Assembly (NCBI GenBank): GCA_016201505.1
Contig: JACQCQ010000013.1
Span: forward strand, 5,285-69,284
DNA length: 64,000 nt
Direction: 5' to 3'
Source: Candidatus Sungiibacteriota bacterium
GTDB lineage: Bacteria; Patescibacteriota; Minisyncoccia; Sungbacterales; JACQCQ01
Shown here: positions 6,995-63,900 of the stretch, in pieces
Layout of the letters: every line of letters begins with the position of its first letter
Position numbering within the stretch: position 1 is the first letter of the stretch
Notes under the pieces: model-generated
Seen by the model: the letters and a program-made list of their open reading frames with translations, nothing else
Database searches by the model: none
What the model was told of the DNA's origin: nothing
Translations under genes and position numbers: made by a program

Positions 6995-7050
6995 AAAACA
7001 GAGTTGTGCCATCTTCAAATCTCAAAAATAGCGCAACTCTGTTTTCTTTT
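6995..7050 (+). terminator. Hairpin (aaaacagagttg / caactctgtttt, large loop) followed by cttttaaa
   Basis: Inverted repeat at 6995-7006 and 7034-7045, downstream of the 6974 stop. Confidence 0.4.
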
Positions 7051-7061
7051 AAATGAAATGA

Positions 7062-7559
7062 TTAGGCCAGAAGCGGCGGCAAGCCGCCGCTTCTGGCCAC
7101 GGGTAGTCCACGCGGATCTTTGAAAAGACCGGCGGGACATGTTCCCTCGCCTAACTGCCGACAAAGTCGGCGCAGGCCGGGCTCGGCTTTCCTCGCGATG
7201 ACCCTTGCCTTTGCCAGGTACTCGAATGGGTCGTAGTCCTTCTGATGACTCTCGACCCAAAGAGCTCCCGCATCCCGAATCTCCTCATCGAAGACTCGGA
7301 CGGCTTCCTCGACGGCGACAGGGTCCCTGCCGTAGCGCAGCGCCATCTGCCGAATGAAAACGTCCTCCTGACCGGCGATGGCCGAGAGACTGATGAAAAC
7401 CAGCTTCTCGGTTTCCGAGAGGACGGCGGAGGCGACTTTGGACCTCTTCGGCACTTGGGGTGCTGTATAGAGCACCCAGGAGACGAAGATCATGAGACCA
7501 GCAAACCCTACAAGGACGGCCAGCATGGCTCCTCGCACTTCCTGATCTTGCTTCTTCAA
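7062..7559 (-). CDS. Hypothetical membrane-anchored protein inside a ~600-bp GC-rich patch
   Basis: N-terminal TM helix (AMLAVLVGFAGLMIFVSWVLY). The local GC is far above the flanks. Several overlapping ORFs exist here only because of the GC richness. Confidence 0.4.
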   Translation of the reverse strand: MKKQDQEVRGAMLAVLVGFAGLMIFVSWVLYTAPQVPKRSKVASAVLSETEKLVFISLSAIAGQEDVFIRQMALRYGRDPVAVEEAVRVFDEEIRDAGALWVESHQKDYDPFEYLAKARVIARKAEPGLRRLCRQLGEGTCPAGLFKDPRGLPVARSGGLPPLLA

Positions 7560-7678
7560 TGGCTCCTCCTACGCGCCCCTCGCTTGGGGCGCGTCCTGGG
7601 TTTTGACATCCAAGTCCAAGGGAAAAACGATAAAAGACCTTCATCTTCTATACTATATTATTACTAGTCCGTCAAATG

Positions 7679-8221
7679 CTACTGGCAACTTTTATCAAAT
7701 GTAACCAGAAAGTGAAGTACGGGATTTGATTGGTCGTAATAGGTCAGCTGGCTGATCCCGGTAAACCGTGGATCGAACAATTCATTCTTGCCCGGGTCGA
7801 GGCTGATATATAACGGGCTGGGGTCGGTTTTTTTGTGGTTCGGCGAAATCGCAATGGCCAGTGGCTTATCGCTTTTATTTACAATATTGACAATACAGCC
7901 TAGCCCTTTGGTAATTGAAAGGTTGAGCAAGTTAGGTATAAAGGCGTTTCTAGTATATTCAATACGATTTTCCCTGGCATTATCTTGGGCGCTGGATGGC
8001 GCCGCCGAATTATTTGCCGCGCGGCGCGAATACCACTGGAGTCCGGCATAGGTGAGTCCGGCAAGCAGAAAAATGAATACCGCAACTCCGATAAAAAGTT
8101 TTTTAGTAAACCCCGAGACCACGGGTGTAGACCCGCAGTTTTCGCCCTTCGGCTTGGCATTTTTTGACTCTTCATCCCCGTCTTTAGAAACGGGGCTTTC
8201 TGGTGTTTCGGTAAATGTCAT
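7679..8221 (-). CDS. Hypothetical membrane-anchored protein
   Basis: 180-aa ORF with an internal TM helix (IGVAVFIFLLAGLTYAGL). Confidence 0.5.
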   Translation of the reverse strand: MTFTETPESPVSKDGDEESKNAKPKGENCGSTPVVSGFTKKLFIGVAVFIFLLAGLTYAGLQWYSRRAANNSAAPSSAQDNARENRIEYTRNAFIPNLLNLSITKGLGCIVNIVNKSDKPLAIAISPNHKKTDPSPLYISLDPGKNELFDPRFTGISQLTYYDQSNPVLHFLVTFDKSCQ

Positions 8222-8223
8222 GC

Positions 8224-8562
8224 CTATTGGATGAGTGAACCTGATTCAATTTCTTGATCTGGAGTAAGGAGCGAAATAACCCCACTCGATGAAGCCGCCA
8301 AAACCATGCCCTGGCTTTCGAGCCCCATCAATATCCGCGGCTCCAAATTGGCGACGACCACGATCTCTTTTCCTATAAGATGTTCGGGATCATACGCTTT
8401 CCCGATCCCGGCGATAATTTGGCGTTTCTCGCTCCCGAGGTCAACTTCCAGCCGAATCAATTTATCCGACGCTTCCAGCCGCTCGGCAAAAATGATTTTC
8501 GCAATCTTTAGCTCAACATTCCTAAATTCGGCTATCGAAATCACATCGAATAGTATGGACAA
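8224..8562 (-). CDS. tRNA-binding domain protein (CsaA/Trbp111/MetG C-terminal-like)
   Basis: ELKIAKIIFAERLEASDKLIRLEVDLGSEKRQIIAGIGKAY...GKEIVVVANLEPRILMGLESQGMVLAA matches the OB-fold tRNA-binding domain pattern. Confidence 0.7.
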   Translation of the reverse strand: MSILFDVISIAEFRNVELKIAKIIFAERLEASDKLIRLEVDLGSEKRQIIAGIGKAYDPEHLIGKEIVVVANLEPRILMGLESQGMVLAASSSGVISLLTPDQEIESGSLIQ

Positions 8563-8655
8563 ATCCTAAAATTTTGCAATTCCTATCAATAATACGCGAA
8601 CACGTATCTATGATTGTAATATCGCAAATTAAAATCTATGATACGATAATACATA

Positions 8656-9102
8656 ATGAAAACTCTCGTGGTTCTTGCCTTCATTGTATTGGCCTTTTAC
8701 GGCTATCGCTATTTGCCTGCAAGCATCAAATCAAAAACTGATGCCTTTCTCGCCGCGTCTCATCTTGAGGCCTTCGGACCGAGCCGCTGGCTGCCCGCAC
8801 TTGGGGAAGCATCGGACCCTTACGCCGAAAAATTGCACGAAGGCAGTCCAGTGGTAAAACGCGAAAAGTTAATTCAGGATTTAAAAGGCCAGATTCAAAT
8901 TATGGCCTCAACGCATGATGCCAAAACGAACGCCGAACGCGCTCAATTTACTAAAGCCGGGACTGAAGCCAAGTCACTGCTGGATCAATTGGAGACAGAA
9001 AATCCGAACAGCGGCTTTCTGCGCGACATCGCGTTTAAAATACTAGAAGCCATTTTACCGTCAGCCTCATCAACGGCGATCTGCAACTCGCTAAAATTAT
9101 AG
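8656..9102 (+). CDS. Hypothetical exported or membrane-anchored protein
   Basis: N-terminal hydrophobic segment (MKTLVVLAFIVLAFYGY). Confidence 0.5.
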   Translation: MKTLVVLAFIVLAFYGYRYLPASIKSKTDAFLAASHLEAFGPSRWLPALGEASDPYAEKLHEGSPVVKREKLIQDLKGQIQIMASTHDAKTNAERAQFTKAGTEAKSLLDQLETENPNSGFLRDIAFKILEAILPSASSTAICNSLKL

Positions 9103-9180
9103 TCGATTTTCCTCCCAAAGATGATCCACTCCAATACTTTAAAGTATTGGAGTGGCCTGGTTTTCAAGCATTCGTTAAAT

Positions 9181-9843
9181 CTAGCCGTCACTGTAGCGGT
9201 CTTCTTTCCAGGGACGGGCAGAGTTAGAGTAGCCTCTTTCTTCCCAAAAACCAGGCTGGTCGTGAGTTAAAAACTGAATCTCGGTCAAAAACTTGCATGA
9301 TTTCCAGCCGTATAAATGCGGAATAATCATACGAATCGGCCCGCCGTGCTCCGGCGGAATCTCTTCGCCCTCGAGCAGAGTCGCCACCATTACCTTCTCT
9401 TTTAAAAGTTCAGCATAGGGAACGTTGGTCGTGTATTTATCGAAGGCGTGGAAAACAACGAACTTGGTATCAGACTTGGGGTTTGCGATTTGAATGATTT
9501 TAGAAAACGGTATCCCCTGCCAATGGAGATCAAATCGCGACCAGCGCGTCACACAATGAAAATCAGCGGTGATATTTTGATTCGCCAGTTGTTTCAATTC
9601 ATCCAGCGAGAGAGTTTTAGGGTTTTCGATATTGCCCTTCAGTTCAAGAGACCAGCGCGGGTAAAGCTCCTTTGACGGCCGGATGCCCAAATCTAAAATG
9701 GGGAATGCTTTGGTCAGCATTTGGCCCGGTGGCAAGCGGCTTTCTCCGCCCGCTGGCGGATCGTGCGAAACTGCGGCGTGCTTTTGGGCCTGCGCCTCTT
9801 TAGCTTTGATTAAGGCTTCATTATATTGCGGTTCGTCTGCCAT
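9181..9843 (-). CDS. Molybdopterin-dependent oxidoreductase, sulfite oxidase/MsrP(YedY)-like catalytic subunit
   Basis: LDELKQLANQNITADFHCVTRWSRFDLHWQGIPFSKI matches the HCV..WS molybdopterin-binding signature. Confidence 0.7.
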   Translation of the reverse strand: MADEPQYNEALIKAKEAQAQKHAAVSHDPPAGGESRLPPGQMLTKAFPILDLGIRPSKELYPRWSLELKGNIENPKTLSLDELKQLANQNITADFHCVTRWSRFDLHWQGIPFSKIIQIANPKSDTKFVVFHAFDKYTTNVPYAELLKEKVMVATLLEGEEIPPEHGGPIRMIIPHLYGWKSCKFLTEIQFLTHDQPGFWEERGYSNSARPWKEDRYSDG

Positions 9844-9860
9844 TTTTTGAGAGTAACACC

Positions 9861-11309
9861 TTAGCGAATAAAGAAAATAAGTCCGGTATTGAGACTCGGC
9901 TTTAGAGCTTCATATTGGTTTGGTAGAAGATAATGGAAATGGCGGCGGGCTTGGTCGACCGGTAAAAAGGTGTCGGTGATAAACATCACAGTTTGGGCAG
10001 GCATAGGGATGCCGCGAACCTCAACTCCCCTGGCTTGGACGACGATATATTTGTCTACATTATCCGGAAGCGAATCTAATTGACGCCCCAGTGCCACGTA
10101 ATCGGCGGCATAGGCGTCGGCTACCTCGGGGCGGCTGGCCCAATCAAGAAAATAGGATTTGAAGGTGTAGGCCGAAATGCCCAGCAAAATCAAAACTGAA
10201 ACGATGGCCAGATGACGGGCCGTCAGGCGCAGTTTTATATATTCACAGAGCCACAAGGCACCCGAGGCCGCAAATCCAAAGGCTGGCGGGATCAATAAAA
10301 TTGAGCGCAGTGCGTGTGGCAGGCCTTCGTTGGAAATGACAACCGGCAGCAGCGCCAGCAAAAACATCAGAGTCATCGTCCAGCCAAAAATATTTCTTCG
10401 TTTTACGGCAATACCGATGCCAAGCAAAAATAAAAGTCCGACCGGCCAGAAGAGTTCGGGCCGACCGGAATAATTATGCCGCCAGTTTCCGTCGCCGCGG
10501 ACATTAAACATACCGAGCGTCAGGACAATATTTTTAGCCAAGTCACGCGCAGGAGTTGGCGAATGGAAAATCGAGACCTGGGTCGTGCGGCCCAAGAAAT
10601 CGGCCGGATGCGTGCCGAAGTAATATAAGAGCGGGATAGCCACGATAAGGGCCGAAAGATAAAGGCCAAAGGCCAAATGCCAGAAGCCGCGCCGGCGCCA
10701 AAAATACGGCACAAAAACAAGAAACAAAAACGGCATGATACGGAAAGCAATATAGGTGTAGGCGCCAAGCCCAAGCATCAGGCCGGCCGCTAGACTATAA
10801 CGGAATGAATTTTTACGCAGCGAGACCAGAAAGAAATAAAGCGCGAAGATAAGAAACAGCGGCGCCATAATCGCGCGGAATCCCAGCCGCGAGAAAGTAA
10901 TGTGCCAATAACTGACCGCCAGAAAAAACGAGCCGGAGAAAGCTAAAATCAGTGGAGATTTTAATTTAGCCGAGCCGCCTAATTCAAGCAGCAAAAAGAA
11001 AAATCCTAAAACGGTCAGGACGCCAAAAATCGGGCTGGGCAGGCGCAGTGCCCAAGGCTCGCTGAGGCCAGTCACCATAAGCGAGAGGGCCTGTAGATTC
11101 ATCATCAACCCTTCGCGTCCGTTATTTTCCGGATAAAAAACTTTAAACCCGCCGGCTAGCGGACCAGTCTTGATGGCCTCCAGCGCATTGTTCCCATTCA
11201 TCGCCTCATCGGGGTAAAGGCCGGGGGGCGTCGATTCAAAATGATAAAAACGAAAAAAGATCGCAACCAGCACCACCAGAACCAGCGCCCAAAATTCAAT
11301 TCGCTTCAT
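9861..11309 (-). CDS. Glycosyltransferase family 39 (ArnT/PMT-like) polytopic membrane protein
   Basis: More than 10 TM helices. N-terminal FYHFESTPPGLYPDEAMNGNNALE loop carries the DE motif typical of ArnT/PMT. Confidence 0.7.
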   Translation of the reverse strand: MKRIEFWALVLVVLVAIFFRFYHFESTPPGLYPDEAMNGNNALEAIKTGPLAGGFKVFYPENNGREGLMMNLQALSLMVTGLSEPWALRLPSPIFGVLTVLGFFFLLLELGGSAKLKSPLILAFSGSFFLAVSYWHITFSRLGFRAIMAPLFLIFALYFFLVSLRKNSFRYSLAAGLMLGLGAYTYIAFRIMPFLFLVFVPYFWRRRGFWHLAFGLYLSALIVAIPLLYYFGTHPADFLGRTTQVSIFHSPTPARDLAKNIVLTLGMFNVRGDGNWRHNYSGRPELFWPVGLLFLLGIGIAVKRRNIFGWTMTLMFLLALLPVVISNEGLPHALRSILLIPPAFGFAASGALWLCEYIKLRLTARHLAIVSVLILLGISAYTFKSYFLDWASRPEVADAYAADYVALGRQLDSLPDNVDKYIVVQARGVEVRGIPMPAQTVMFITDTFLPVDQARRHFHYLLPNQYEALKPSLNTGLIFFIR

Positions 11310-11358
11310 TGTATGGTATGCATTGTATGCCGACGGGCGTCGACAAAAAAGGGTCGGG

Positions 11359-11568
11359 CTAGAGCCCCTGAAGATTCTGCGCGCTATAGACGTTTAAAAA
11401 TTGCGGAATAGCCACAATCAGCCCGATCGCCGGCAAGACAATAACGAGCAACGAAATAACGAGCGTCCAAAGAAAATAACGCCGCATCTTTTCGACTGAT
11501 TTCGTCATGATCGCAATTTGATTTGACTGCTCTTCTAATTTTCTTAATATTTCTTGTTCCATAAGCAA
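11359..11568 (-). CDS. Small hypothetical membrane protein
   Basis: 69 aa with one TM helix. Confidence 0.35.
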   Translation of the reverse strand: MLMEQEILRKLEEQSNQIAIMTKSVEKMRRYFLWTLVISLLVIVLPAIGLIVAIPQFLNVYSAQNLQGL

Positions 11569-11640
11569 ATTATACCAGGTACAATGTTTTCTGAATATTG
11601 CCCAAAAGCCAAAACAGGAATATAAATAATTGGGTAAGGA

Positions 11641-11889
11641 ATGAGATTATTCAAACAGTATGGTTGGCTGACGCTCGTAGCCCTGCTCCTCGTTGGGGGA
11701 AGTTTTTGGGCGGGCTTGGAATACCGCCACGCGTATCCGTCGATCAACCATCATACCGGACCCATTCGACTGGCCCAGAATGAGTATCCGCTGATTAACC
11801 CGCTGATTGCCTGCGAGGTTTCTGATCACCGGGTCACCGGGGGCTTATTGAATTCAGCGCGCTCAAGGATGATACTAGTGTCTTCATAA
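11641..11889 (+). CDS. N-terminal fragment (signal-anchor region) of a class A beta-lactamase/PBP-like serine hydrolase, probably one gene with 12009..12668 if a frameshift is real
   Basis: Signal-anchor-like N-terminus. Frame 0 is open from 11826 upstream of 12009 and reads ...ISLYFRDLNSGSWVGENENDTYNPASLLKV. Confidence 0.4.
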   Translation: MRLFKQYGWLTLVALLLVGGSFWAGLEYRHAYPSINHHTGPIRLAQNEYPLINPLIACEVSDHRVTGGLLNSARSRMILVSS

Positions 11890-12008
11890 AAAATGCGATC
11901 TCAGTAAACAAAGCGGACGATATTTCGCTCTACTTCAGGGACTTAAATTCCGGCTCCTGGGTCGGCGAAAACGAAAACGATACCTATAACCCCGCCAGCC
12001 TTTTAAAA

Positions 12009-12668
12009 GTGGCCACATTAATCAGCGTCTTAAAAGTTGCCGAGGCGGATGCGGGAATTTTGAATCGCCAATTAACCTACGATGGAAGTTTTGATGAAAA
12101 TAAGACTGAAAACATCAAGCCGCAAAAAAGCCTTGAGCCGGGGGTAACCTATAGTGTGGATGAACTGCTCACCTATCTGATCGCCTACTCGGACAACAAT
12201 GCGTGCCATTTAATCCACGAGGTATTGGACGACAAAGTCCTGCTTGAGGTCTATTCTGATCTTGGTCTGCCCGTCCCTCCGCAATCAGCCAATGGGCTCA
12301 CGGTTGACTACATGTCGGCTAAGTCATACTCGTTCATGTTTCGCGTGCTATTCTCCAGCACCTATCTTTCCCGAGCTATGTCAGAAAAAGCGCTCGAGCT
12401 CTTGACGACACCTGATTTCCCTCAAGGCATTGAGGCCGGCGTGCCAAAAAACATAACGACCGCGCAGAAATTCGGCGAACGCGGGGTCGTCTCCCCGACC
12501 GGCCAATTGCTTTCGGCCGAACTGCATGACTGCGGTATTATCTATTATCCGAGCCATCCCTATCTTCTTTGTATTATGACGAAAGGAGCTAAATTTGATG
12601 ATTTAACGCGCCTAATCCGCGATCTTTCAACGCTAGTCTATCATGATATAGATTCAAAATATAAATGA
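12009..12668 (+). CDS. Class A beta-lactamase/D-Ala-D-Ala carboxypeptidase-like serine hydrolase (C-terminal part; reading frame is open upstream to 11826)
   Basis: SxxK (SLLK) motif just upstream in the same frame, SDN motif (AYSDNNA), and a KG-containing motif (TKGAK). The GTG start in the ORF track is probably not the true start. Confidence 0.6.
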   Translation: MATLISVLKVAEADAGILNRQLTYDGSFDENKTENIKPQKSLEPGVTYSVDELLTYLIAYSDNNACHLIHEVLDDKVLLEVYSDLGLPVPPQSANGLTVDYMSAKSYSFMFRVLFSSTYLSRAMSEKALELLTTPDFPQGIEAGVPKNITTAQKFGERGVVSPTGQLLSAELHDCGIIYYPSHPYLLCIMTKGAKFDDLTRLIRDLSTLVYHDIDSKYK

Positions 12669-12674
12669 TCAATC

Positions 12675-12698
12675 AAAAAGCCGCGTACGCGGCTTTTT
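12675..12698 (+). terminator. Rho-independent terminator aaaaagccgcgtacgcggcttttt
   Basis: Perfect GC-rich hairpin flanked by A and T runs, immediately after the 12668 stop. Confidence 0.65.
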
Positions 12699-12767
12699 GA
12701 TTGGATCTCTCGGCTGGCGCGTCCGCTAAAAATAAGAAATAGAAGAGGCCTCCACCGAGCGGAGGCC

Positions 12768-13187
12768 TCATGGGAGGGTCATACAGCAACTTGGTACCGG
12801 AACGAACGCGCCCGGCGCCTGGCAAATCAGGAAGAAACTAAAATGCCGACTCGGCCGCGCGTAGCGCCAGGGGAGCTCGTACCACACAACCACAGCATCC
12901 GCAGGCGCTTTTAGTTCAGCCAGCATATGACGAATCGCCTTATGCTTCAGGCAACCGACATGCTCGATAGCGACTACGCGCGAACCTTGCGGGACATTCT
13001 TCACCGTGAAGCGATGAGGAGCGCTTGACGACGAGCTGCCATCAGCCGCAAGATGCCCTGCGTCCACAACAAACGAATAATCACTCGCACGCTGATAGCC
13101 GAGAGTCCGCCGTGCCAGTGGCTGCAATCGGATGACTTCGCTCTCGTCTCTCACCACCAGTTTCTCGGCTCGGCGATAGGGGCTCAT
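12768..13187 (-). CDS. Hypothetical protein in the GC-rich island
   Basis: ORF only. GC-rich DNA generates many overlapping ORFs here. Confidence 0.3.
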   Translation of the reverse strand: MSPYRRAEKLVVRDESEVIRLQPLARRTLGYQRASDYSFVVDAGHLAADGSSSSSAPHRFTVKNVPQGSRVVAIEHVGCLKHKAIRHMLAELKAPADAVVVWYELPWRYARPSRHFSFFLICQAPGAFVPVPSCCMTLP

Positions 13188-14071
13188 CTCCCTCTCCTCC
13201 TTAATTACGAAGTATAGAATGCCAGAAAATAAAAGACCATCACAAAAAATTTGGGAATATCAATTCGGCCGCCGCGAATACGCGGCGGCCCGAGTGCGAG
13301 ACCCTCATCCCCGGGAGAGCACTTCCTCCATTTCGCGATAGCACTCAAGCGCGAATTCACGAACGGTCGGAGCCTTATAGCGTACCGTCCTCGGAACACC
13401 GCGTCCGGGAAGGGCGCGCCAGACGCGTTCGATAGTCTTGACACCCGGAGAATCGGCTCGAATCATCGTTGCCGATGAAATGCCGCTCGGACTGACTCCC
13501 CTTTCTTCGGCCAGGACCCGGCGGATGACAGAGACAATACGCGCTATGGCTTGGCTTTGCATCGCGTCTCCTTTTTCGTTTCTGACTTATGTAACGCCAG
13601 CCAAATAAAAAAGTTTCCAGAGCGATTCCGGCGAAAAAAAGAAACGCCGCGGCCGCGTCATATGCGGCCGCGGCCTGAAAGCCCCGCCTGTTAGCCTCCT
13701 TCCCGAGGCTTTTTTGACTTCCGATAACGGTTGAGATAATCCCCGTGAAGAACTGCGCACCAGGCGCGATTGGAATCGCCGCCTGCTTCCGAACTGCCGG
13801 AAAGAAAGGCTTCCGAATCGACTGCGCCGTCATCGGCGCCCTCACGCGGGGGCTGATGTGCCTCGCACCACCTCGTGTCAAGGATCTCACTGAAAGGATC
13901 TGCATCCGGTTCGCAGCCCGGGCAGTAGGCGCGAACAAATGTTGCGACTGGCGGTGGAAACACGGACATGGGTTCCTCCTTTCAGTCTGGTCTCAAATAC
14001 TGCTCGGACTCATCTACCTTTGAGACTATCGAACATTGGCTCCAGACGCAATGTGCCTTTCTCTCATAAAA

Positions 14072-14260
14072 TCAATTTGAAATTTTAAACGCCAGCCAGA
14101 CGCCGAGAATTGTCCCCACGGCACTTCCAAGAGTTCCGGAGAAAGAAAATATACCGGCGCCCCACAATTCGGGAATAAAACCACCGATCATCGAGCCCAC
14201 AAACAAACCGATCCAAATCAACGATTTCCGACTCATATCACTAGTATAGGCCATATCCAA
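14072..14260 (-). CDS. GlsB/YeaQ/YmgE-family small membrane protein (transglycosylase-associated)
   Basis: 62 aa, two TM helices with glycine-zipper motifs (GSMIGGFIPELWGAG, GTLGSAVGTILG). Confidence 0.65.
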   Translation of the reverse strand: MDMAYTSDMSRKSLIWIGLFVGSMIGGFIPELWGAGIFSFSGTLGSAVGTILGVWLAFKISN

Positions 14261-14305
14261 ATCAAAAAACCGCTCCGACGAATGCCGAGAGCGGTTTTTT
14301 GTAAT

Positions 14306-14506
14306 TTAGGCTTTCGAGACGTTGACGGCATTCGGCCCCTTGGGGCTGTCCTGCACTTCAAACGTTACGCGATCGCCTTCCTGAAGTTCATCAAAGGTTA
14401 CTCCCTTTAATTCCTTCGAGTGGAAAAAGAGATCTTTTTCCTGCCCTTCAACCTTGATGAAGCCGAAGCCTCGATCAGTCTTGCGGGCGACAGTTCCTTC
14501 TTGCAT
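14306..14506 (-). CDS. cspA: Cold-shock protein
   Basis: MQEGTVARKTDRGFGFIKVEGQEKDLFFHSKEL...GDRVTFEVQDSPKGPNAVNV, with RNP1-like GFGFI. The ORF extends upstream, but the internal Met gives a canonical ~66-aa CSP. Confidence 0.85.
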   Translation of the reverse strand: MQEGTVARKTDRGFGFIKVEGQEKDLFFHSKELKGVTFDELQEGDRVTFEVQDSPKGPNAVNVSKA

Positions 14507-14656
14507 GTAACAAAAGAAATATTCGCTTAGTAATGTATCAGTCAGTACCCTGATCTGAAGCCTCGAACATTGGCTCATTTCAGCACTTGATGTGATTTCG
14601 CAACAATATCATACATATTTTTCGTTGTCAATAGATTCATTTTAGCCCTAACAAGG

Positions 14657-15229
14657 CTACTTTCCCACAAGCTTCATCATCTCGCGAATGAAGGCCGCGA
14701 TGTCCATCGGCCAGCGCGAGGTAACTAAATTCCCGTCCACGACCACGTCCTTATCTTCCCAGATGCCGCCGGCTTTTTTAATGTCCTCCGGCACGCCGTC
14801 CCCCCAAAATGAGGCGAGTCGCCTCCCCTTAACCAGGCCAGCCGAAACCAAAAGCCAGGGTCCGTGACAAATCGCAGCCACCGGTTTGTTGCGCGCAAAA
14901 AATGATTTGGCGATGGCCTGCGCTTTTTTTGAATTCTGCACAACCGTTGGCGCCCCGCCCGGCCGGCCACCCGGAATCAAAAGTAAATCGTATTCATCGG
15001 GATTTATTTCATCAATGGTTTTATTCGCCGCGATATAGTACCAGCCGCTTTCGCCGGTGATTTTCCCTTTTTTGGGTGCGGCGATGTCGACGCGCCAGCC
15101 TGCGGCGATTAAACAAAAGACCGGGACGTACAATTCCATATCCTCGAATTTATCGGCGCTTAAAACAAGGGCTTGCTTCGCTCCTTCGCGCGCATCTTGC
15201 GGTATCACTCCATATTCCGGTTCGGGCAT
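14657..15229 (-). CDS. DJ-1/PfpI-family protein (class I glutamine amidotransferase-like)
   Basis: AAICHGPWLL nucleophile-elbow motif plus LLIPGGRPG. Confidence 0.85.
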   Translation of the reverse strand: MPEPEYGVIPQDAREGAKQALVLSADKFEDMELYVPVFCLIAAGWRVDIAAPKKGKITGESGWYYIAANKTIDEINPDEYDLLLIPGGRPGGAPTVVQNSKKAQAIAKSFFARNKPVAAICHGPWLLVSAGLVKGRRLASFWGDGVPEDIKKAGGIWEDKDVVVDGNLVTSRWPMDIAAFIREMMKLVGK

Positions 15230-15336
15230 ACTGTTTCCACATTATACACGAAGCCTCGCATCCCAACCAAAAAAGAAACCGCCCCGTGCCATTTGTAGCA
15301 CACGGGGCGGAGAAACCCTTCTGGCTGCGGGTATCA

Positions 15337-16086
15337 TCACCACACAGCCAGCCGAGCAGTGATCCGTAGCAGCCGCAGGGACGCGAGGACCTTGATCACC
15401 GGCCATGACGGATCGACCTCACCGCGCCGTACGGCAAATCGCGGTGAACGCTGATGCGCGTGATGATTGTTGTGCAGACTCTCGCCGGCGGTAAACCAGG
15501 CGAGGAGTTTTGAGTTCGTCGCCGTCTGGTCCAGGTAATTCCGTGCGCCGTTGCGCCGATGGCCGACGGCATTGATCAGTGGCGCCACGACAAAGACGTA
15601 GAGCACCCCATGCAGAAACGCGATGGAAATGGCCGGCCAGAGGCCGAAGATCCAGCAAAGGCCGAGGGTGCCGAGCACCGGCCCAGCCAGATCAAACAGA
15701 GAACCGACTATCGGTTTTGCCAGCAGCCGATCCCACCAGTCGACCCGCATTCCCTTGGTGTACTTTGCGATAGTCTCGTGATTTCGCGCCTCGCGGATGT
15801 AGTAGTAAACATTCCACAACTGCACGCGCCAGAATCCGAGGAGCAGCGGACTATGCGGATCGCCGGGCACATCGGTGAATGCGTGGTGCTTCCGATGCAC
15901 AGCAACCCACTCACGCCGATCCTGCCCCGTGGTGACCCACAGAATGACCCGAAATACGGCGCTCATGAATCGGCCGACTTTGAGCGAACCGTGCGTCAGA
16001 CCGCGATGCAGATAGATCGACGTTGTGAAGGTTGCAATCGTAGTGATCGAGAGTGCAACCAGGATTACGACAAGCGCCGTAGCCAT
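15337..16086 (-). CDS. Membrane fatty-acid (acyl-CoA/acyl-lipid) desaturase
   Basis: Histidine boxes HRGLTH, HRKHHAF and HNNHHAHQ, with TM segments. Confidence 0.8.
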   Translation of the reverse strand: MATALVVILVALSITTIATFTTSIYLHRGLTHGSLKVGRFMSAVFRVILWVTTGQDRREWVAVHRKHHAFTDVPGDPHSPLLLGFWRVQLWNVYYYIREARNHETIAKYTKGMRVDWWDRLLAKPIVGSLFDLAGPVLGTLGLCWIFGLWPAISIAFLHGVLYVFVVAPLINAVGHRRNGARNYLDQTATNSKLLAWFTAGESLHNNHHAHQRSPRFAVRRGEVDPSWPVIKVLASLRLLRITARLAVW

Positions 16087-16231
16087 GTGCCACCCCTCCC
16101 TCCAGCGAACTTCGTTTTGAAAAAGAACTGCGACTTCTATTTAGTATAGCACTGAAATGAAGATTCTTTTTTAAGACACTGTTTTTGATATTTTTCTCGT
16201 GTCTTTCTGTATAATTGATGAAGTCAAACTA

Positions 16232-16269
16232 CCTATAACGTACTACAGTACGTTATAGGTAGTACGGAC
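16232..16269. repeat. Palindrome cctataacgtact-ac-agtacgttatagg followed by tagtacggac; boundary motif shared with 63873-63900
   Basis: 13-bp inverted arms seen directly. The 16-nt string tataggtagtacggac recurs at 63885-63900. It sits at the junction between GC-rich and AT-rich DNA. Confidence 0.5.
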
Positions 16270-16350
16270 CTATGTATTACGGAATTTCTTTCCTCGTGTT
16301 TAGTTGCATCACATATAATAAGAAGGGGCGCCGCAGACTCGAGCGGCGCC

Positions 16351-16728
16351 CTAGGGGGACGCTCTCCCCTTCTTGATGAGGTGGAGGACGACGCCCTGGA
16401 TATCTTGCTTGTGCCGCAAGGTCTCGTAGACCAGCACTGTGCCCAAGAAAAGCGCCCCAACCTTGATGAGCCTCTTCAAGGTAATGGGCTGGTGATCATC
16501 GCGCTCCGGTTCGTAGACCTCCATACCGTCGAGCAGACCGGCTCGCTGCAACTCGGTGATACTGTCCCCGAACCTTCCCATCTCTGTGCGACTGTTGAGA
16601 ATGTTATTTTTATCTCGGCAGAGATCACAGTAGAGCGAAAAACCGCCATGCTTGCAGGCCGCATAGGCTTCAAATGCCCTGCGCGCTTTGCGGAGACGAT
16701 CCGGATCATGAGCTTCCACGGTCTTCAC
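16351..16728 (-). CDS. Hypothetical protein (C-terminal TM) in the GC-rich island
   Basis: ORF only. Confidence 0.3.
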   Translation of the reverse strand: MKTVEAHDPDRLRKARRAFEAYAACKHGGFSLYCDLCRDKNNILNSRTEMGRFGDSITELQRAGLLDGMEVYEPERDDHQPITLKRLIKVGALFLGTVLVYETLRHKQDIQGVVLHLIKKGRASP

Positions 16729-17035
16729 CTCCTTAAAGAACGTATCTGATTGGTGCTTTATTGTATACCTCTAATAAAAATTAGCCAGTTGTTGAAGCTT
16801 TACGTGGCGGAGGAGGTTACTGTGTCCGTCCAAAGCCTTGGCGAAGGAGGAAAACCTATGCCGAGGAAGCGCTTTGGCTGGAGGACGCCATTAGAAGTTT
16901 TTGCCGACAGTGTTGCACTTACTTGTTGAACCTAATCCTTTGAGAGACAAAACGAGTATATTTACATACCAGATTCAATAACTTGCTCAAACGCATAAAT
17001 TTTTATCTCACCTCGCTACTCACTATTGTTTGGAA

Positions 17036-17066
17036 ACAAAAAGCTCCCATCATGGGAGCTTTTTTG
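17036..17066. terminator. Bidirectional rho-independent terminator aaaaagctcccatcatgggagcttttttg
   Basis: Perfect hairpin with A-run and T-run flanks, 20 bp downstream of the minus-strand gene ending at 17088. Confidence 0.7.
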
Positions 17067-17087
17067 CGGAAGTAGCAAGCAAGAGGC

Positions 17088-17630
17088 TTAGGGATTTAAG
17101 CCGACCTCTATCGGAAGCCCGGTTATAGTATCTACCATTTCTGTTACTCCACCGTCATTGCTCAAGAATACCTTACCGCTATCTTCGGCCAGGGTTACAT
17201 CATCAACTGGCGTGAAGTCAGCTTCACATAAGTTATTTGTTTCTGCAGACAAGTCGAATGCAACATTCCAAAGATATCCTGTATTTTTACCAGGTTTATT
17301 TAACCTTGGATTATAAGCATCAACCTCTTTGTTGGTGTTTACGACAGCTTTCTTATCAACAGTGATAGTTTTTGTACCTTTTTTAGTTATAATGTCCTTT
17401 TGACAGGTTTGCTCGTATTTGGCTTGAGCGTGGAGAAATACCCTCGCTCCATTTTTGTAGGTACCTTTGCCAACAAACCCATTAGCGAATCCATTGCTAT
17501 CTGGTGCGGCTAAGCTGGAAGCATAAACTAAGAGGTCATTTTGAACTGCAGCAAAGACCGCAGTTGTCGTGAGAGCCAAAACCATAGCTGTGATTCCTAA
17601 ACTAGCAGGTATTTTTTGTAATTTTTTCAT
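17088..17630 (-). CDS. Hypothetical secreted protein
   Basis: Signal peptide MKKLQKIPASLGITAMVLALTTTAVFA. Confidence 0.6.
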   Translation of the reverse strand: MKKLQKIPASLGITAMVLALTTTAVFAAVQNDLLVYASSLAAPDSNGFANGFVGKGTYKNGARVFLHAQAKYEQTCQKDIITKKGTKTITVDKKAVVNTNKEVDAYNPRLNKPGKNTGYLWNVAFDLSAETNNLCEADFTPVDDVTLAEDSGKVFLSNDGGVTEMVDTITGLPIEVGLNP

Positions 17631-17840
17631 GATATTTTTCCCAATATTAATGTTTTAGCAAGCTCGACCTTATTATTGGAAGACTATCCAAACTCACTTA
17701 AATTATTAGTAAGAAATATAGCATAAACAATTATTAAGTCAATTTTTTTACCGCACTTTTTCTACCACGCTCCGCCACTCACTATTATTTTCGGAAGGTT
17801 CTAATCCCGCAATGGGTCACGAAAATAACCCCTATAAAAT

Positions 17841-18155
17841 CAGGCTATTTTAAGTGCTCCATACCCTGAACGAAATCCGAACGCATTTTCGGGAAACCCC
17901 CGACGAATGAAGCCGCCCCGCCGCCGCTCGCTACCACTCGCCGCACCACAGAAAAATACTCTTTGCTCTTTTCGTTTTGCGCGCGCCCGATTTTTTCTTC
18001 TCTTAATGAAAAGAGTATTTTTCTGTGGTGCATTGCTTTGACAAGCAAGGCGGCGGGGCTGGCCTCTATTTTTTGCAAGAACACGGCGGAATTCCCCCCA
18101 CACCCCCCTTCCGCCGTGTTCTTGCGGGGACGGACGGAATTTTTGGCGGCGGCTA
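17841..18155. repeat. GC-rich repeat R1 copy A (inverted partner at 21998..22203), carrying a nested 107-bp insertion
   Basis: Sequence from 17841 onward equals the reverse complement of 22203 downward, except for an insert at 17926-18032. Contains long internal hairpins (gcaagaacacggcggaa...ttccgccgtgttcttgc and ccgccgccttgc-tttgacaa-gcaaggcggcgg). Confidence 0.75.
17946..18028. mobile_element. MITE-like 83-bp element with 19-bp terminal inverted repeats (ccacagaaaaatactcttt ... aaagagtatttttctgtgg), nested in R1 copy A only
   Basis: Perfect terminal inverted repeats seen directly. Absent from R1 copy B. Confidence 0.45.
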
Positions 18156-18163
18156 ATCAAGTA

Positions 18164-19222
18164 TTAAGATTGCTTAAAATACTCATTCAACTGATTGACA
18201 AATTCCTTTGTGTCTAAAAAATAATTTGGGTATGCTTTCCTTAACTCTTTTGCTGTGTCTGCAGATACAAGCACTATATCCCTATCTTCTTTATTTTTTA
18301 ACATCCTCTCTTCAAGCTTTGAGTATTCTGAGTTTGCAAATTCTTCTTGAGATTTTTTAAAAGCTGAAATTTTCAATTCTCTTGTTGTGAGGTCTAGGTT
18401 TAGAAGATAGAAATCAAATTTATCTTTAGCCTCTTTCTCAAAGTTCTCGATTATTTTATGAATTCTCGCCCACTCGTTCATTTTTTTAACAACTTTTAAT
18501 TGTCTCGCCAATGCCTGGACTTGTTCTCGTAACTCGGCTTTATCGGTGGGTGTATTCGGCACCGAGGGCGTGTTTTCCATATTCGCAAATGCAGAGCTAA
18601 CCAATCTGAAGAAATCCATCCACTCTTTTTGACCTTCGTTTGATTTAATTGCTTGTCTAGTAAAATGGTCAACTGTTTCAACGGCTGTAGCCCAATAGTG
18701 CTGTAAATATGTTCTTATTTGTATTTCAATTAGTAGTCCATCATATGCATTACTTTTATCGCTGTAATATTTATAAACAAAATGGAAACTTCTATATCCG
18801 TCAGGTTTTGGATTCGTTATATAATCTTTCTTATTTGATAATTTATGTTTCAGGCCCCTGCTTTTTTCGTAAAGTCCAACAAGTTCATTAACTTTCTGAA
18901 GGTTTGGCAAAACCGATCTGCAGCCGCCAACATCTTGCATTCTTGACATCTTCATTTTGCTAGTCTGATCACGCTTGAGCTTCTTAATTATTGATGAGAC
19001 GCGCTTGAGCCGCCGCGTAACTATTGCCGATGAATCAACTCGTTTTGAAATTCGTTTTAGTCTCACGGCAAACGTATGCAGTGGAAAACTATGAGATGAA
19101 CGCCAATTAGTCAAGATATCGAGAGCATTGCTTATTTCTTCGGACGAGCTACTCGAAGAAATAAGCACATCTCCCGCTTTATTTACCTGATTCTTCGAAA
19201 AATTTAATTTGGTCCATCCCAT
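18164..19222 (-). CDS. RelA/SpoT-domain nucleotide pyrophosphokinase (toxSAS-like) with a ~150-aa C-terminal helical extension; candidate CapRel-type fused toxin-antitoxin
   Basis: RelA/SpoT synthetase motifs: ISNALDILTNWRSSHSFPL, RLKRISKRVDSSAIVTRRLKR, MQDVGGCRSVL (DxxGxR), PKPDGYRSFHFV, EIQIRTYLQHYWATAVE. 352 aa, versus ~210 aa for housekeeping SAS. Confidence 0.7.
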   Translation of the reverse strand: MGWTKLNFSKNQVNKAGDVLISSSSSSEEISNALDILTNWRSSHSFPLHTFAVRLKRISKRVDSSAIVTRRLKRVSSIIKKLKRDQTSKMKMSRMQDVGGCRSVLPNLQKVNELVGLYEKSRGLKHKLSNKKDYITNPKPDGYRSFHFVYKYYSDKSNAYDGLLIEIQIRTYLQHYWATAVETVDHFTRQAIKSNEGQKEWMDFFRLVSSAFANMENTPSVPNTPTDKAELREQVQALARQLKVVKKMNEWARIHKIIENFEKEAKDKFDFYLLNLDLTTRELKISAFKKSQEEFANSEYSKLEERMLKNKEDRDIVLVSADTAKELRKAYPNYFLDTKEFVNQLNEYFKQS

Positions 19223-19261
19223 AACATTACTTTATTTTCCAGTTTTAATTCGGTTAGCTTT

Positions 19262-20431
19262 TTACCGATTTCCTTTTGCTCGATTGTGGGTCTTGCACAA
19301 CATCTCACAATTTTTCGTTGAAGTAGCACCACCCTTACTCCACGCTGATACATGATCTGCTTCCATTTCGCTAAAACTCCAAACCTTGCTCTTATTGGCG
19401 TCATGTCCTATCGCGCAATGTGAACAATTTGATTTCTCTTTAGTTTCCGCCTCACTTGTTTGTTTCGCGTAGACAGATCTCTTGGTCGCCTCATCAAAAA
19501 TTCGGACATCTAGCAATTTCGTATCAACTGAGCCGCCGAAAATATATTCAAAAATACCTTTTCGGTTTTTTACATACGGATCGCTATAAAGTTTTTGCAC
19601 CGCCTTTGAAATTTTAGCTGGGTCGTAAGACTTCTTGTGATACTCCTCATACAAGCGCCCCCACTCTAGGCCGCACATCTCGCTCTCTACATCTGTAAAT
19701 ACACTCGAAACCCAATCAATCACGCTATTGAAATATGTTTTTAGCTCTTTAATGTTTGTATCTTTGCGGTGACGACTCATGTAATCGTCAATATTCCCCT
19801 TACTTACCCAATCTAGCGCTCTCTCAAAAAATGCCTGTCGAGCCGCACTACCCTTTATGTATACGCTCCATTTTTGGATATTGGCATTTTGACTATTACT
19901 AAACTCCTCCTTGCCGAGCGTAACGAATGGCCCAGAATAGATAGCATTTAACAACTCTTGTGGAACGAGAGGTACTCCAGCGATATTTATAGTTTTGAAC
20001 CACTCCTTTATTTCACTTTCTGCGCCCTCGCATTCGTAAATAAGCAAAGGAGTTTTCAAAATTCTACTCTGCTTGTCTTTTGCCATGCCGCTAAAATATT
20101 GTTCCATTCCATTTTCGTCTTTTATGGCAAACTTGTCAGTTACAAACCGTCCGAGACTAGTGATGCGTTGTTGGCCGTCTAAAACTTCTAGATTGTCGGC
20201 AGAAACTTTATTGAAATAAATTAATCCTATCGGGTATTCTTTGAGGACTGATTCAATAACAGCTATTTCTCTTTTACCGCCATCAGACGCATAAATATAA
20301 TTTCGCTGGTACTCCGGCTGAATGGTGAGTTTGCCAGACAAACCAAATAAACCCTTGCCCTCGAGTTGGTTATAGATAAATCCATCGCAGATCTCTTTGA
20401 CAGTTATATTAGTTTTTAAAATTGTCTTCAT
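19262..20431 (-). CDS. DUF262 (ParB/GmrS-like NTPase) fused to a C-terminal HNH/His-Me finger nuclease; GmrSD-family type IV-like restriction endonuclease
   Basis: [15 protein letters not shown] motif. C-terminal CSHCAIGH...[11 protein letters not shown]...[18 protein letters not shown] motif. Confidence 0.75.
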
Positions 20432-20432
20432 A

Positions 20433-21647
20433 CTATTTTTTCTTATGTCTTATAAAAATTCTTTGGTAAGCAGACTGGACGATTCGACCTTCTTTGTTAA
20501 TAAAGTAGTTCTTTTTTTCATCATTTCCAACTAAATTAGCATTTTCATTTGTCTTTCCTCCAGATGATCCTGTTTTCATGCCATCCTGCCTTACCTCCCA
20601 ATAATCATAATAATTTTTTGTGTCAGGAACCTCATCATGGCACCCTCTTTGGGTCGCTCCTAAAATTTCAAACTGGTCCGGATTATATTTATTCAAAAAA
20701 CTAATCGGCACGCCCATCACACCTTTATAGTCGCTGGGAATATTTTTCACTAATGACACTTCTATTACATCATAATTGTCATACTTTTCGAATGGTTTTT
20801 TTGTTACAAACTTTATAACATCAGATTTAGTCATTAGCGGTAGTGACTGATGTCTGCGCCCATGGTCAAGATTCGTAAACCATAAGCAACCTTTCACAAA
20901 TAAAAATTTCTTTCCTTCCTCTATTTTTGAATTTGCGACATTTTCTCTTATCGGGTAATCGTCTGGTACTTGGAACCACTTATTTCGCCCGTCCATTGTG
21001 ACTCCTAGCCACAACTTATTATTCTTGATGAGTGGAAAAATTTCTTTATAAGTAATCGCATTTAAATTACCGATAATGATAAAATTTCTATTGTAATCAA
21101 AAAGCTGCTTAATATATGGTCGAAACAAGCTGAATGGTGGATTTGTTACTACAATGTCTGATTGTTTAAGAAGATTTATACATTCATCACCACGAAAGTC
21201 GCCATCGCCGTCTAGAGGCGTCCATTCGTTGTGTTTGTTTGCCTTTAACTGCTTGGCAACATCTTTCAAATTAAACTCGCCGTCTCCGTCTATATCATGC
21301 ACTTCGTTGATAATAAATTTGTTGGCAGTCACCTTTGGACGGCCTTTTGATTTTGTGAGCGTTTTGTCATCACCAAATAATCCTAGTTGTGTGTTGGCTA
21401 CGGGCGAGGGCTTGTAGCTGGTGGTAATAAGCTGTTTCAATCCGAGCTTGTTGAAATTGAGTACAAAATAGCGAAAGAAATTGCTCTCAAACGGATCGTC
21501 GCAGTTGCAATATACTACCTTACCGCGGAATGTATTAGCATTATATTCTAAATACGCTTCAATTTCTTTTTGAATATCGTCGTACTGAGTATAAAACTCA
21601 TCACTCTTTGCTTTTTTTGCTTTGTTAAAACTACTGCTGTTTGCCAT
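20433..21647 (-). CDS. N6-adenine (or N4-cytosine) DNA methyltransferase, EcoRI-methylase-like family
   Basis: N-terminal [14 protein letters not shown] and catalytic VVTNPPFS (NPPF) motif. Confidence 0.7.
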
Positions 21648-21649
21648 AA

Positions 21650-21865: not shown

Positions 21866-21997
21866 AGTAATATAATACTATAATCAAAGTAATGGCGATT
21901 AAAATTGATTATTATATTACTATGGTATCAAAAAATAACGAATTAGTAAATCTCAAAGGGAGCTCCTTAGCCTTTTCCGCGCACGGGTGGTGGGGCA

Positions 21998-62702: not shown

Positions 62703-63374
62703 CTAGACGAGCGAGGCCTCGCGCCGCGGACGCAGGTTATTGTTGAGAGCCCAAGCTCGCGCCTCGGTGACACGAGCCCGGCTGATGGCGCCTGCGGCAG
62801 ACTTCCGGAAGACCCGCTCTCGGATGACAAGGAAGTACTCGGCATCGATCCGGACCGGCATCTTCCGCCCGTCGGAAAAGGTCCAGACCGTGAACGACCG
62901 CTCGGTGTTGAATTCCGAACCGAAACGGTGGCCTCGGGCAAAGTTAGCCGGCAGCCAGTCGTCCCAGTTCGGCTTGGTCTTGACGAACGGCGAGGGGGGC
63001 GGGCAGACGAATTGACGTACTGCTCCCCTCCAGACAAAACCGAACGTCCGAGCGAGCGCCGGATTGGCTTCGCGGCTGGCGGCGAGCGCTTGCTCGACTT
63101 CCGCCAGCATCTGACTTACTGGGATTTTCTCGATCACCGCGAGTAACCGATCCCCCGCCATTAGGCCAGCCTTCAGCTCTTCAGCAGTGATTCCCTCGCA
63201 TTGAGCGTAACCGTCATTCTCGACCAGCGACCCAAATTTCCTTAAGAAGGTAGTCAACTCTGGCTTCTCCAGTCTGGAGTTACGATCTCCAACTGCATTG
63301 GTTATACCTTTAATACTGCAAAAAGGCTTTTGAGTCAATCTAGAAATAGAAGAGGCCGGGAGAGGAACGTACAT
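62703..63374 (-). CDS. Hypothetical protein in the second GC-rich patch
   Basis: 223-aa ORF; the region is ~62% GC, unlike flanking DNA. Confidence 0.4.
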   Translation of the reverse strand: MYVPLPASSISRLTQKPFCSIKGITNAVGDRNSRLEKPELTTFLRKFGSLVENDGYAQCEGITAEELKAGLMAGDRLLAVIEKIPVSQMLAEVEQALAASREANPALARTFGFVWRGAVRQFVCPPPSPFVKTKPNWDDWLPANFARGHRFGSEFNTERSFTVWTFSDGRKMPVRIDAEYFLVIRERVFRKSAAGAISRARVTEARAWALNNNLRPRREASLV

Positions 63375-63399
63375 CGCTCTCTCAACCGGCCTCGGTGCC

Positions 63400-63561
63400 G
63401 CTAGCGGCGAGGAACGCGGACCAGCGCATCGCAGCCCGTTTGGGCCTTGCCGCAGTGGCCCTGGTCATCGCACCGCTTGCACGGGCAGTCGCAGACCCGA
63501 CTGGGTAGCTTCGTCGCGTCGCGGCTACCAAACGTCATGGCGTTAATCTCTTTCTTCGCCA
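63400..63561 (-). CDS. Small Cys-rich protein (53 aa; CDCPCKRC...HCGKAQTGC)
   Basis: Hand-translated short ORF below the ORF-track cutoff; eight Cys residues. Confidence 0.3.
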
Positions 63562-63585
63562 TCTCATCTCCTTCTCATCTCCTTA

Positions 63586-63801
63586 TTATCGGATTGGCGT
63601 TCCTTCGACACACCAGCAGGAATCTTGCGATACCCCGCAGTGCGTCGGACTCCGGTCGCAGTGAAGGCAGCGGCAGATTGGAAACTCCGAGTCTGCCTCG
63701 GCCACGTATGACTCCGTGTCTTTGATGTCATCCCCCACGGTATTCCTCCACGTGTAAATTTCTAGCAGCATTTTATCACAAAATAAAATAAAGTCAAGCA
63801 T
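63586..63801 (-). CDS. Small Cys-rich protein (71 aa; CRCLHCDRSPTHCGVSQDSCWC)
   Basis: ORF track; Cys cluster. Confidence 0.35.
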   Translation of the reverse strand: MLDFILFCDKMLLEIYTWRNTVGDDIKDTESYVAEADSEFPICRCLHCDRSPTHCGVSQDSCWCVEGTPIR

Positions 63802-63872
63802 ACCTGATAATGGTTGAGTAGCTTCGCAATGGTCTACCCGAATGTAACTCCCCCCATGCCTACCGATATCTC

Positions 63873-63900
63873 CCTATAGTACAATATAGGTAGTACGGAC
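63873..63900. repeat. Second copy of the boundary motif cctatagtacaatatagg-tagtacggac
   Basis: Shares tataggtagtacggac with 16254-16269 and has the same palindromic cctata...tatagg arms. Confidence 0.5.

Follow-up and report, generated by a model that had tools for sequence, protein, structure and literature searches.

Does a GC-rich run of genes encoding a fatty-acid desaturase, a cold-shock protein (Csp) and a PfpI protein mark a block of foreign DNA in a genome of otherwise lower GC? The run lies at positions 12700-16270 of a 64,000-nucleotide window (the whole stretch of DNA that was analyzed) from a 157,758-bp contig. The contig belongs to a metagenome-assembled genome (MAG) of 'Candidatus Sungbacteria bacterium', an ultra-small groundwater bacterium of the Candidate Phyla Radiation (CPR); the proteins of the run are NCBI MBI3627813-MBI3627818, and locus tags were recovered for two of them (HY220_03690, HY220_03695). 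An initial annotation, made from sequence alone, had proposed either recent transfer from a high-GC bacterium or a chimera of assembly or binning. We find that 12700-16270 is a mosaic accessory patchwork, neither a uniform 60% GC island nor the product of one transfer event. Its clearest foreign element is a laterally acquired desaturase, a case of ordinary gene transfer in an ordinary mosaic. We think it probable that the stretch is the left part of a ~21-kb non-syntenic accessory region, in which independently transcribed minus-strand genes have differing histories that include lateral acquisition of the desaturase.

The desaturase is the strongest codon outlier in the window. We derived an expected GC for each protein by coding its residues with the window's own codon frequencies (reference standard deviation (SD) 1.9). 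For the desaturase, 59.7% is observed and 52.8% expected (z 6.2), with GC at third codon positions (GC3) of 0.70 versus 0.55, while the other six of the seven genes of the stretch match native codon usage. The Karlin dinucleotide signature, which is independent of GC, is typical over 12.7-14.5 kb and deviates only in windows over 15.25-17.7 kb (z 2.0-2.8), which are among the most deviant of the window.

The protein scores 66.5 bits against PF00487 (gathering cut-off 29.7), and its His boxes, H27-x4-H32, H64-x2-H67H68 and H205-x2-H208H209, are all invariant in a 25-sequence family alignment. Similarity to stearoyl-CoA desaturase SCD1 (PDB 4YMK) is weak yet specific. With the membrane acyl-lipid and acyl-CoA Delta9 desaturases (SCD1 and the DesA type) it has in common the three His boxes, the hydrophobic segments and the Pfam match. 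It differs from them in being just 249 amino acids long, in residing in a CPR host without known fatty-acid synthesis, and in falling far under the cut-off of the DesA equivalog NF049918 (169 bits against 400, aligned only to positions 7-240 of 385).

The closest non-self homologues of the desaturase are 55-61% identical, and none exceeds 61% among 5.8 billion clusters. In a GTDB scan with one genome per species, Methylomirabilota/Rokubacteria accounted for 26 of the 29 top loci (52-59% identity), followed by Acidobacteriota, and the clade nearest to the query was at least 70% Methylomirabilota in 79 of 100 neighbor-joining bootstraps. Two further CPR desaturases, from Parcubacteria and Doudnabacteria, share 49-50% identity with the query and 57% between themselves. 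Each is nearer to some non-CPR sequence, and the Doudnabacteria copy grouped with Acidobacteria in 96 of 100 bootstraps. Both are single-gene GC spikes (0.585-0.60 in loci of 0.485-0.505; GC3 0.74-0.75). The desaturases of low-GC hosts outside CPR agree in GC with their loci (gene/locus 0.49/0.50, 0.52/0.52 and 0.53/0.51), so that high GC is not intrinsic to the gene.

GC3 averages 0.89 in the donor clade, which places the query at ~44% of the way from host to donor. With GC3 about half ameliorated and no homologue above 61%, the transfer does not appear recent. From these affinities we conclude that the desaturase is a likely lateral acquisition from a Methylomirabilota-like lineage, one that either is not recent or came from a true donor that is unsampled; similar, separate acquisitions appear to have occurred in other CPR. 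The proposal of transfer from a high-GC bacterium therefore stands for the desaturase only, as a codon and dinucleotide outlier nearest to Methylomirabilota/Rokubacteria, and fails both in its word 'recent' and in its single block from one donor. A desaturase on a ~50% GC contig, in a bin labelled Gammaproteobacteria, is a single-gene spike too; together with those of Parcubacteria and Doudnabacteria, the three genes reach a GC of 0.585-0.60 (GC3 0.70-0.75), whereas their loci have 0.485-0.505.

The stretch as a whole is far less uniform than had been described. Its GC is 53.7%, not ~60%, and that of the rest of the window is 47.1%, not ~45% (window mean 47.5%). It is the window's most GC-rich 3.5-kb segment, yet stands only ~2 SD over the mean, and its composition varies along its length:

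12700-14000: GC block, 56.9%
14001-14656: GC block, 44.8%, holding csp and a small membrane open reading frame (ORF)
14657-16100: GC block, 57.1%
16101-16340: intergenic spacer, 36% GC
16351-16728: adjoining gene, 56% GC

Of the abrupt shifts claimed for both ends, the left one is real, with GC rising from 41% to 58.5% inside 200 bp where the 34-nt palindromic terminator at 12670-12703 lies. On the right, the 36% GC spacer gives way to a further GC-rich gene (GC3 ~0.70), and the palindrome at 16228-16263 sits in a promoter-type spacer between two GC-rich genes and is not a compositional boundary. Nor does the element deviate in composition as a whole, as a genomic island would: only the desaturase and the adjoining gene, ORF-125, do so, and 12.7-14.6 kb is native by codons and dinucleotides.

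Seven minus-strand genes, nearly all with their own terminator, make up the stretch, and the spacers between them are AT-rich. The three genes first recognized are all present (Pfam CSD 2.1e-19, DJ-1_PfpI 1.6e-48, FA_desaturase 4.2e-18), and four minus-strand ORFs of 139, 85, 92 and 62 amino acids had been overlooked. Ribosome-binding sites of the GGAGG type precede ORF-139, ORF-85 and ORF-92. The left hairpin, first placed at 12675-12698, is a perfect palindrome with A/T runs on its flanks. No RNA family was found by Rfam in 12.5-17.1 kb, either at the gathering threshold or at E <= 1. The features, including those beyond the right end and a distant second unit, are:

12670..12703: perfect 34-nt palindrome, bidirectional terminator after a frameshifted beta-lactamase-like gene; left compositional step
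12735..12769, minus strand: terminator hairpin of ORF-139, GAGGCCTCC...GGAGGCCTC then TTCTATTTCT; its 3' part is motif L
12768..13187, minus strand: ORF-139, Gly/Ala/Arg/Pro-rich orphan with GGAGG ribosome-binding site, GC ~58%
13305..13562, minus strand: ORF-85 (NCBI MBI3627813), basic orphan
13691..13969, minus strand: ORF-92 (NCBI MBI3627814), Cys-containing orphan with its own terminator at 13646-13674
14072..14260, minus strand: 62-amino-acid predicted membrane ORF of native-like GC (46%); no gene call on the Logan contig
14306..14506, minus strand: Csp, 66 amino acids (NCBI MBI3627816), with promoter at 14603-14631 and bidirectional terminator at 14265-14300
14657..15229, minus strand: DJ-1/PfpI protein, 190 amino acids, GC 54%
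15337..16086, minus strand: membrane di-iron fatty-acid desaturase, 249 amino acids, with terminator at ~15270-15312
16228..16269: motif R, a 17+17-nt perfect palindrome plus 6 nt
16351..16728, minus strand: ORF-125, beyond the right end first assigned to the stretch, with terminator at 16326-16351
63342..63900, minus strand: second unit bounded by motifs L and R, with Cys-rich ORFs at 63586-63738 and 63401-63562, a sigma-70-like promoter and a terminator ending in L

Three of these genes, ORF-139, ORF-85 and ORF-92, are GC-rich because their proteins are rich in Gly, Ala, Arg and Pro (33-38% together, versus 25 +/- 3% in reference genes) and not through foreign codon choice; the GC expected of them is 55.6-58.5% and that observed 58.5-59.7% (z 0.7-2.0). 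The description of the encoded proteins as Arg/Ala-rich thus fits the three orphans and, mildly, the desaturase, but neither Csp nor the membrane ORF. GC by itself overcalled the island, since amino-acid composition accounts for half of it. Against 1.84 billion representative proteins, ORF-139 recovered itself and weak matches to repeat-rich or biased giant proteins, and we therefore treat it as an orphan; its AlphaFold2 (AF2) model is unusable, with a mean predicted confidence (pLDDT) of 45. Neither these three ORFs nor ORF-125 has a match in PHROGs, PADLOC or NCBIfam. For ORF-85, an AF2 single-sequence model gives a helical bundle (pLDDT 83) whose top Foldseek matches in the PDB are nearly all acyl or peptidyl carrier proteins, at weak scores (E 0.04-1, TM 0.5-0.7). 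In the model, Asp37-Ser38 lies just ahead of helix 2, where a phosphopantetheine serine would sit. ORF-85 has no Pfam match even at E <= 10, PP-binding included, and no significant sequence match in the PDB, and we take the modeled likeness to carrier proteins as a lead only.

The GC of Csp, PfpI and the membrane ORF lies inside the native codon-usage range (|z| <= 2), and neither codon usage nor dinucleotide signature is anomalous in Csp, the membrane ORF or the three orphans. Csp, annotated by NCBI in its 66-amino-acid form, scores 69.6 bits against PF00313 (cut-off 27) and falls under every equivalog cut-off. It carries the RNP1 motif RGFGFI and an RNP2-like LFFHS, and its gene has a consensus-like promoter. 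In four Methylomirabilota loci a csp gene lies within 350 bp of the desaturase gene, an adjacency that supports a functional pairing of the two but not their co-transfer, because csp identity to these loci is just 46-50%. We likewise reject a joint transfer of the desaturase with PfpI, the orphans or ORF-125, as the 80 desaturase loci contain no homologue of any of these. In free-living bacteria, des and csp genes that respond to cold are familiar, as in Bacillus subtilis des under DesK/DesR and E. coli cspA. The present locus resembles those systems in having a desaturase and a cold-shock gene near each other; it differs in that there is no DesK/DesR-type regulator, PfpI lies between the two, and each gene has its own promoter or terminator.

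PfpI has a different history again. The protein scores 165 bits against PF01965 (cut-off 26.6), and its translation contains the nucleophile elbow AICHGP (Cys-His). Within the DJ-1/PfpI/YhbO deglycase-protease subfamily it has in common the Cys-His elbow and a score over the TIGR01382 cut-off (156.7 against 139.05), and differs in falling under the cut-off of the PfpI equivalog (158.5 against 330). Its nearest relatives, at 81-83% identity, are on a 40% GC contig beside ribosomal protein L15e (archaeal) and on a groundwater MAG contig labelled Chloroflexi; the Sinomonas/Arthrobacter copies follow at 73-75%, and the best match named Patescibacteria reaches 69%. Its codon usage is native-like, and its homologues drift to mid-range GC in every host. 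Since native genes of this organism match nothing above 60% and PfpI reaches 81-83%, it has probably moved between phyla, as far as sequence comparison can tell, despite its native-like composition. The expectation that best matches would fall outside the host lineage was therefore borne out for desaturase and PfpI, both nearest to non-CPR sequences, which covers two of the seven genes.

ORF-125, whose product has a hydrophobic C-terminal helix, shares the elevated GC of the desaturase (GC3 0.69 observed, 0.51 expected; z 3.6). A homologue 64% identical to it, on the low-GC CPR-like JGI contig C687J35174_10207081, is GC-elevated as well (54.7% versus 44-47%) and has a neighbor that looks SWIB-like when read from its sequence. 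A tblastn search of plasmids and phages with ORF-125 gave no match. We think that ORF-125 looks like a lineage gene with a lasting composition bias. On the contig of the homologue, at 930-1000, an unrelated perfect 40-nt palindrome, CATCCTCACTTCGATACTGCGCAGTATCGAAGTGAGGATG, lies past the homologue's terminator, in the same relative position as motif R.

Might all of these genes be native, with their GC set by amino-acid composition or codon selection and no transfer at all? We regard this as unlikely, even though the orphans owe their GC to their amino acids, the ORF-125 homologue of a relative has raised GC too and the three CPR desaturases are all ~59-60% GC. In low-GC genomes outside CPR the desaturase follows its host's GC; the CPR desaturases are nearer to different non-CPR phyla than to one another, with the Doudnabacteria copy beside Acidobacteria as described above; and PfpI is nearer to non-CPR than to CPR sequences. 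The incongruent tree argues against a native origin for the desaturase, on sequence evidence, but not for the orphans or ORF-125.

The opposite extreme, a single recent 3.5-kb block from one high-GC donor, was the first interpretation of the locus and could draw on its rank as the most GC-rich 3.5-kb stretch in the window, the placement of all genes on one strand, the sharp left GC step and the several Gly/Ala/Arg/Pro-rich proteins. We nevertheless hold it to be very unlikely. A 650-bp segment of 45% GC with csp lies mid-stretch, six of the seven genes are native in codon usage and the dinucleotides of 12.7-14.5 kb are native. The desaturase leads to Methylomirabilota, whereas PfpI leads to archaeal, Chloroflexi-labelled and actinobacterial contigs, and neither PfpI nor orphan homologues stand beside the desaturase in the 80 genome loci. 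No island protein has a relative at >=90% identity, and the near-universal individual terminators and AT-rich spacers also speak against a block.

An artifact would be another way to join GC-rich DNA to a Sungbacteria contig, and here the Logan assemblies of runs SRR12113409 and SRR12113410 served as an independent reassembly. Their contigs equal the window at 100% over 5958-12699, 8835-12699, 12674-14339, 12751-13673 and 14445-17785. The last of these spans the right junction, passing from PfpI through the desaturase and ORF-125 into 40% GC DNA. The left junction, at 12.67-12.70 kb, is not bridged by any Logan contig: those arriving from either side end in the palindrome 12670-12703 (at 12699 and 12674), each 13 nt beyond its center, and such symmetric stops in a perfect palindrome are expected of a k-mer graph. 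A further 105 bp inside csp (14339 to 14445) are left uncovered, and look-ups of the exact Csp and membrane-ORF proteins returned no Logan contig that closes this gap. As csp is the most conserved sequence here, a false join at this point is conceivable. Still, foreign DNA joined into this contig is very unlikely in our estimation, given the 100% agreement of the contigs of both runs, the symmetry of the 12.7-kb breaks and the alternation of GC-rich and native-like segments. Two features, moreover, tie both sides to one lineage: motif L at 12735 repeats at 63342, and the NUDIX gene at 36 kb has a counterpart of 70% identity in the syntenic relative. The chimera entertained by the initial annotation is thus not supported, and 12700-16270 is probably not an artifact.

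The mosaic belongs to a larger variable region. The window's left 11 kb encodes MurA, PriA, Def, Fmt and a family-39 glycosyltransferase (GT39), and the top matches of this flanking GT39 gene are all CPR, at identities <=60%. Two relatives (GCA_016203635.1 and one Logan contig) are collinear with the window over 2.1-11.6 kb and share nothing rightward, and the stretch in question is the left edge of a ~21-kb accessory region (~11.6-32.7 kb). To its right follow a defense island, a serine recombinase, restriction-modification genes and a second serine recombinase with tRNA-Asn, before the RpoD/DnaG backbone resumes from 33 kb. No integrase was found in 12.7-16.9 kb; the two serine recombinases and the tRNA-Asn lie 6-16 kb rightward. 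Insertion of single GC-rich genes has a precedent within the syntenic block itself. An orphan gene at 7062-7559 (minus strand, in 6975-7678; GC 60%, GC3 0.68), which carries a promoter and a terminator of its own, has been cleanly inserted by comparison with both syntenic relatives, where the flanking genes are 155 bp and 11 bp apart, and so GC-rich single-gene insertions do occur in this genome.

With genomic islands and 'moron'-like single-gene insertions our locus has in common atypical composition, phylogenetic incongruence, promoter-gene-terminator units and a non-syntenic region with recombinases and a tRNA. Unlike genomic islands, it has no coherence as an island: it differs gene by gene, no integrase or att pair delimits it, and most of its genes are compositionally native.

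Several other features of the accessory region and its surroundings were observed. The beta-lactamase-like serine hydrolase at 11641-12668 has a frameshift near 11830-11890, with an N-terminal 82-amino-acid ORF and the part carrying SxxK (S-L-L-K) in different frames, and is either a pseudogene or a sequencing error. The defense island (17856-22202, 36-40% GC) comprises a PDC-S33 RelA/SpoT-like gene (PADLOC E 4e-124), a type II restriction enzyme of the GmrSD/HNH type and an EcoRI-type methylase. Long inverted repeats flank it (17856-17925/22133-22202, 70 nt exact; 18030-18157/22008-22135, 128 nt, 96%), and for this reason it may be an invertible or mobile segment. Next to it, a large serine recombinase gene at 22452-24011 is associated with 148-nt inverted repeats (22185-22332/23800-23947, 94.6%), the right arm of which falls within the gene's 3' end; gene and repeats could constitute a self-inverting switch or a recombination site pair. 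Between 25262 and 32717 lie a type I-like specificity subunit, a fusion of N6-methylase and HsdR N-terminal parts, unknown ORFs and the second large serine recombinase (31050-32684), whose 3' end overlaps that of tRNA-Asn (32645-32717), an arrangement often seen with integrated elements. The 5' end of tRNA-Asn also supplies a 16-nt direct repeat, GAGCTACGCCGGAATA, which occurs at 32705 and 32990 around a small low-GC ORF (32708-32959); the whole resembles a tiny insertion beside the tRNA. Near tRNA-Ser, 37385-38800 contains a 33-nt palindromic repeat three times (37387, 38137, 38440) and a 110-nt tandem duplication (38579-38798, 95% identical).

The palindrome at the right end of the stretch raises a separate question, as it had been noted to recur beside a second GC-rich patch. 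It is present as described (first placed at 16232-16269; arms of 17 nt and a 2-nt spacer at 16228-16263), and its recurrence is confirmed by a second copy at 63860-63900, with an exact 16/16 core, TATAGGTAGTACGGAC, and 33/41 identity overall. Motif L, AGAAATAGAAGAGGCC on the plus strand at 12735-12750, likewise has an exact second copy, at 63342-63357. L and R are thus two exact 16-mers, each occurring twice, collinear and in the same orientation, and they are two of only ~5 distant exact repeats of >=16 nt in the window, the inverted repeats at 17.8-24 kb not counted. Read on the coding (minus) strand, R stands ~150-170 nt upstream of the first gene of its unit, which in the first copy is the desaturase, and L forms the stem end and U-tract of the last gene's terminator. 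The first copy of R is a strong hairpin and the second folds no better than shuffled sequence, which rules out R as a conserved hairpin; since only the first copy folds, the conserved part is a half-site plus flank. The second GC-rich patch (62600-63740) holds an orphan ORF at 62703-63374, up to 68% GC locally, and the Cys-rich ORFs of 50 and 53 amino acids, with GC3 of 0.67-0.79.

L and R may reflect an operator common to both units together with related terminators, an old duplication, or a cassette bounded by them. Neither is a composition boundary in both copies, as GC-rich genes lie beyond R in copy 1 and beyond L in copy 2. We consider it quite improbable that they delimit a mobile or recombination unit of the cassette type with GC-rich cargo, with copies at 12735-16269 and 63342-63900. 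The collinear duplication of two exact 16-mers that are so rare in the window would agree with such a unit, as would the extension of R to 33/41, with a conserved half-site and flank as at a recombination junction, and the two large serine recombinases inside the same accessory region. However, the motifs flank the stretch as neither att-like direct repeats nor terminal inverted repeats, target duplications are lacking, and the motifs do not bound the composition shift. The cargo of copy 1 includes genes of native-type codon usage, and L is just a terminator component. Additional copies were found neither in JGI metagenomes and IMG/VR, where an R pattern of 21 specified bases had no match, nor in the fetched loci, and the remainder of the window lacks degenerate copies of L or R (up to 2-4 mismatches by sub-pattern). 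Between the two GC-rich patches there is no protein similarity, and the DNA they share consists of the two 16-mers only. It is very doubtful, too, that L and R mark an undescribed CPR recombination-delimited cassette, with a conserved upstream half-site and a terminator end between which foreign, often GC-rich genes are captured and exchanged; we find it similarly hard to credit that such a cassette is represented twice here, by the 3.5-kb stretch and by the 0.56-kb Cys-rich-peptide unit.

We return, then, to a patchwork of independently transcribed genes within a variable region, and three observations weigh against it. The desaturase is only 52-61% identical to its supposed donor clade and joins that clade by a long branch close to the base, so that the donor is a lineage and not an identified genome. 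The elevated GC of the ORF-125 homologue in a relative means that high GC3 can last without recent transfer. At 58-60% identity in GT39, even the nearest relatives available are too far removed for an empty site to be recognized.

As we picture it, four kinds of gene would have come together here. A short Delta9-type desaturase would have been taken from a Methylomirabilota/Rokubacteria-like high-GC lineage and partly ameliorated; a PfpI/DJ-1 gene with native-like codons would derive from a family that crosses phyla in groundwater; csp and the small membrane ORF would be of native composition; and the three orphans would owe their GC to their Gly/Ala/Arg/Pro content. We infer expression of the genes, activity of the desaturase and a role in stress. 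Together they could act as a stress toolkit, in which the O2-dependent desaturase would place cis double bonds in scavenged acyl chains, Csp would keep RNA translatable in the cold and PfpI would repair or degrade damaged proteins. The acyl chains must be scavenged because CPR lack fatty-acid synthesis: these bacteria are reported to be unable to make fatty acids, and they appear to take up lipids of other cells and alter them (PMC7906910, PMC7242380).

For a CPR bacterium that scavenges its lipids, an O2-dependent desaturase would give direct control over membrane fluidity. The Parcubacteria-labelled and Doudnabacteria homologues bear the same foreign signature, each being nearest to a different high-GC phylum. 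It is tempting to speculate that Methylomirabilota/Rokubacteria, as the donor lineage, could offer a clue to the organism with which this Sungbacterium is physically associated.

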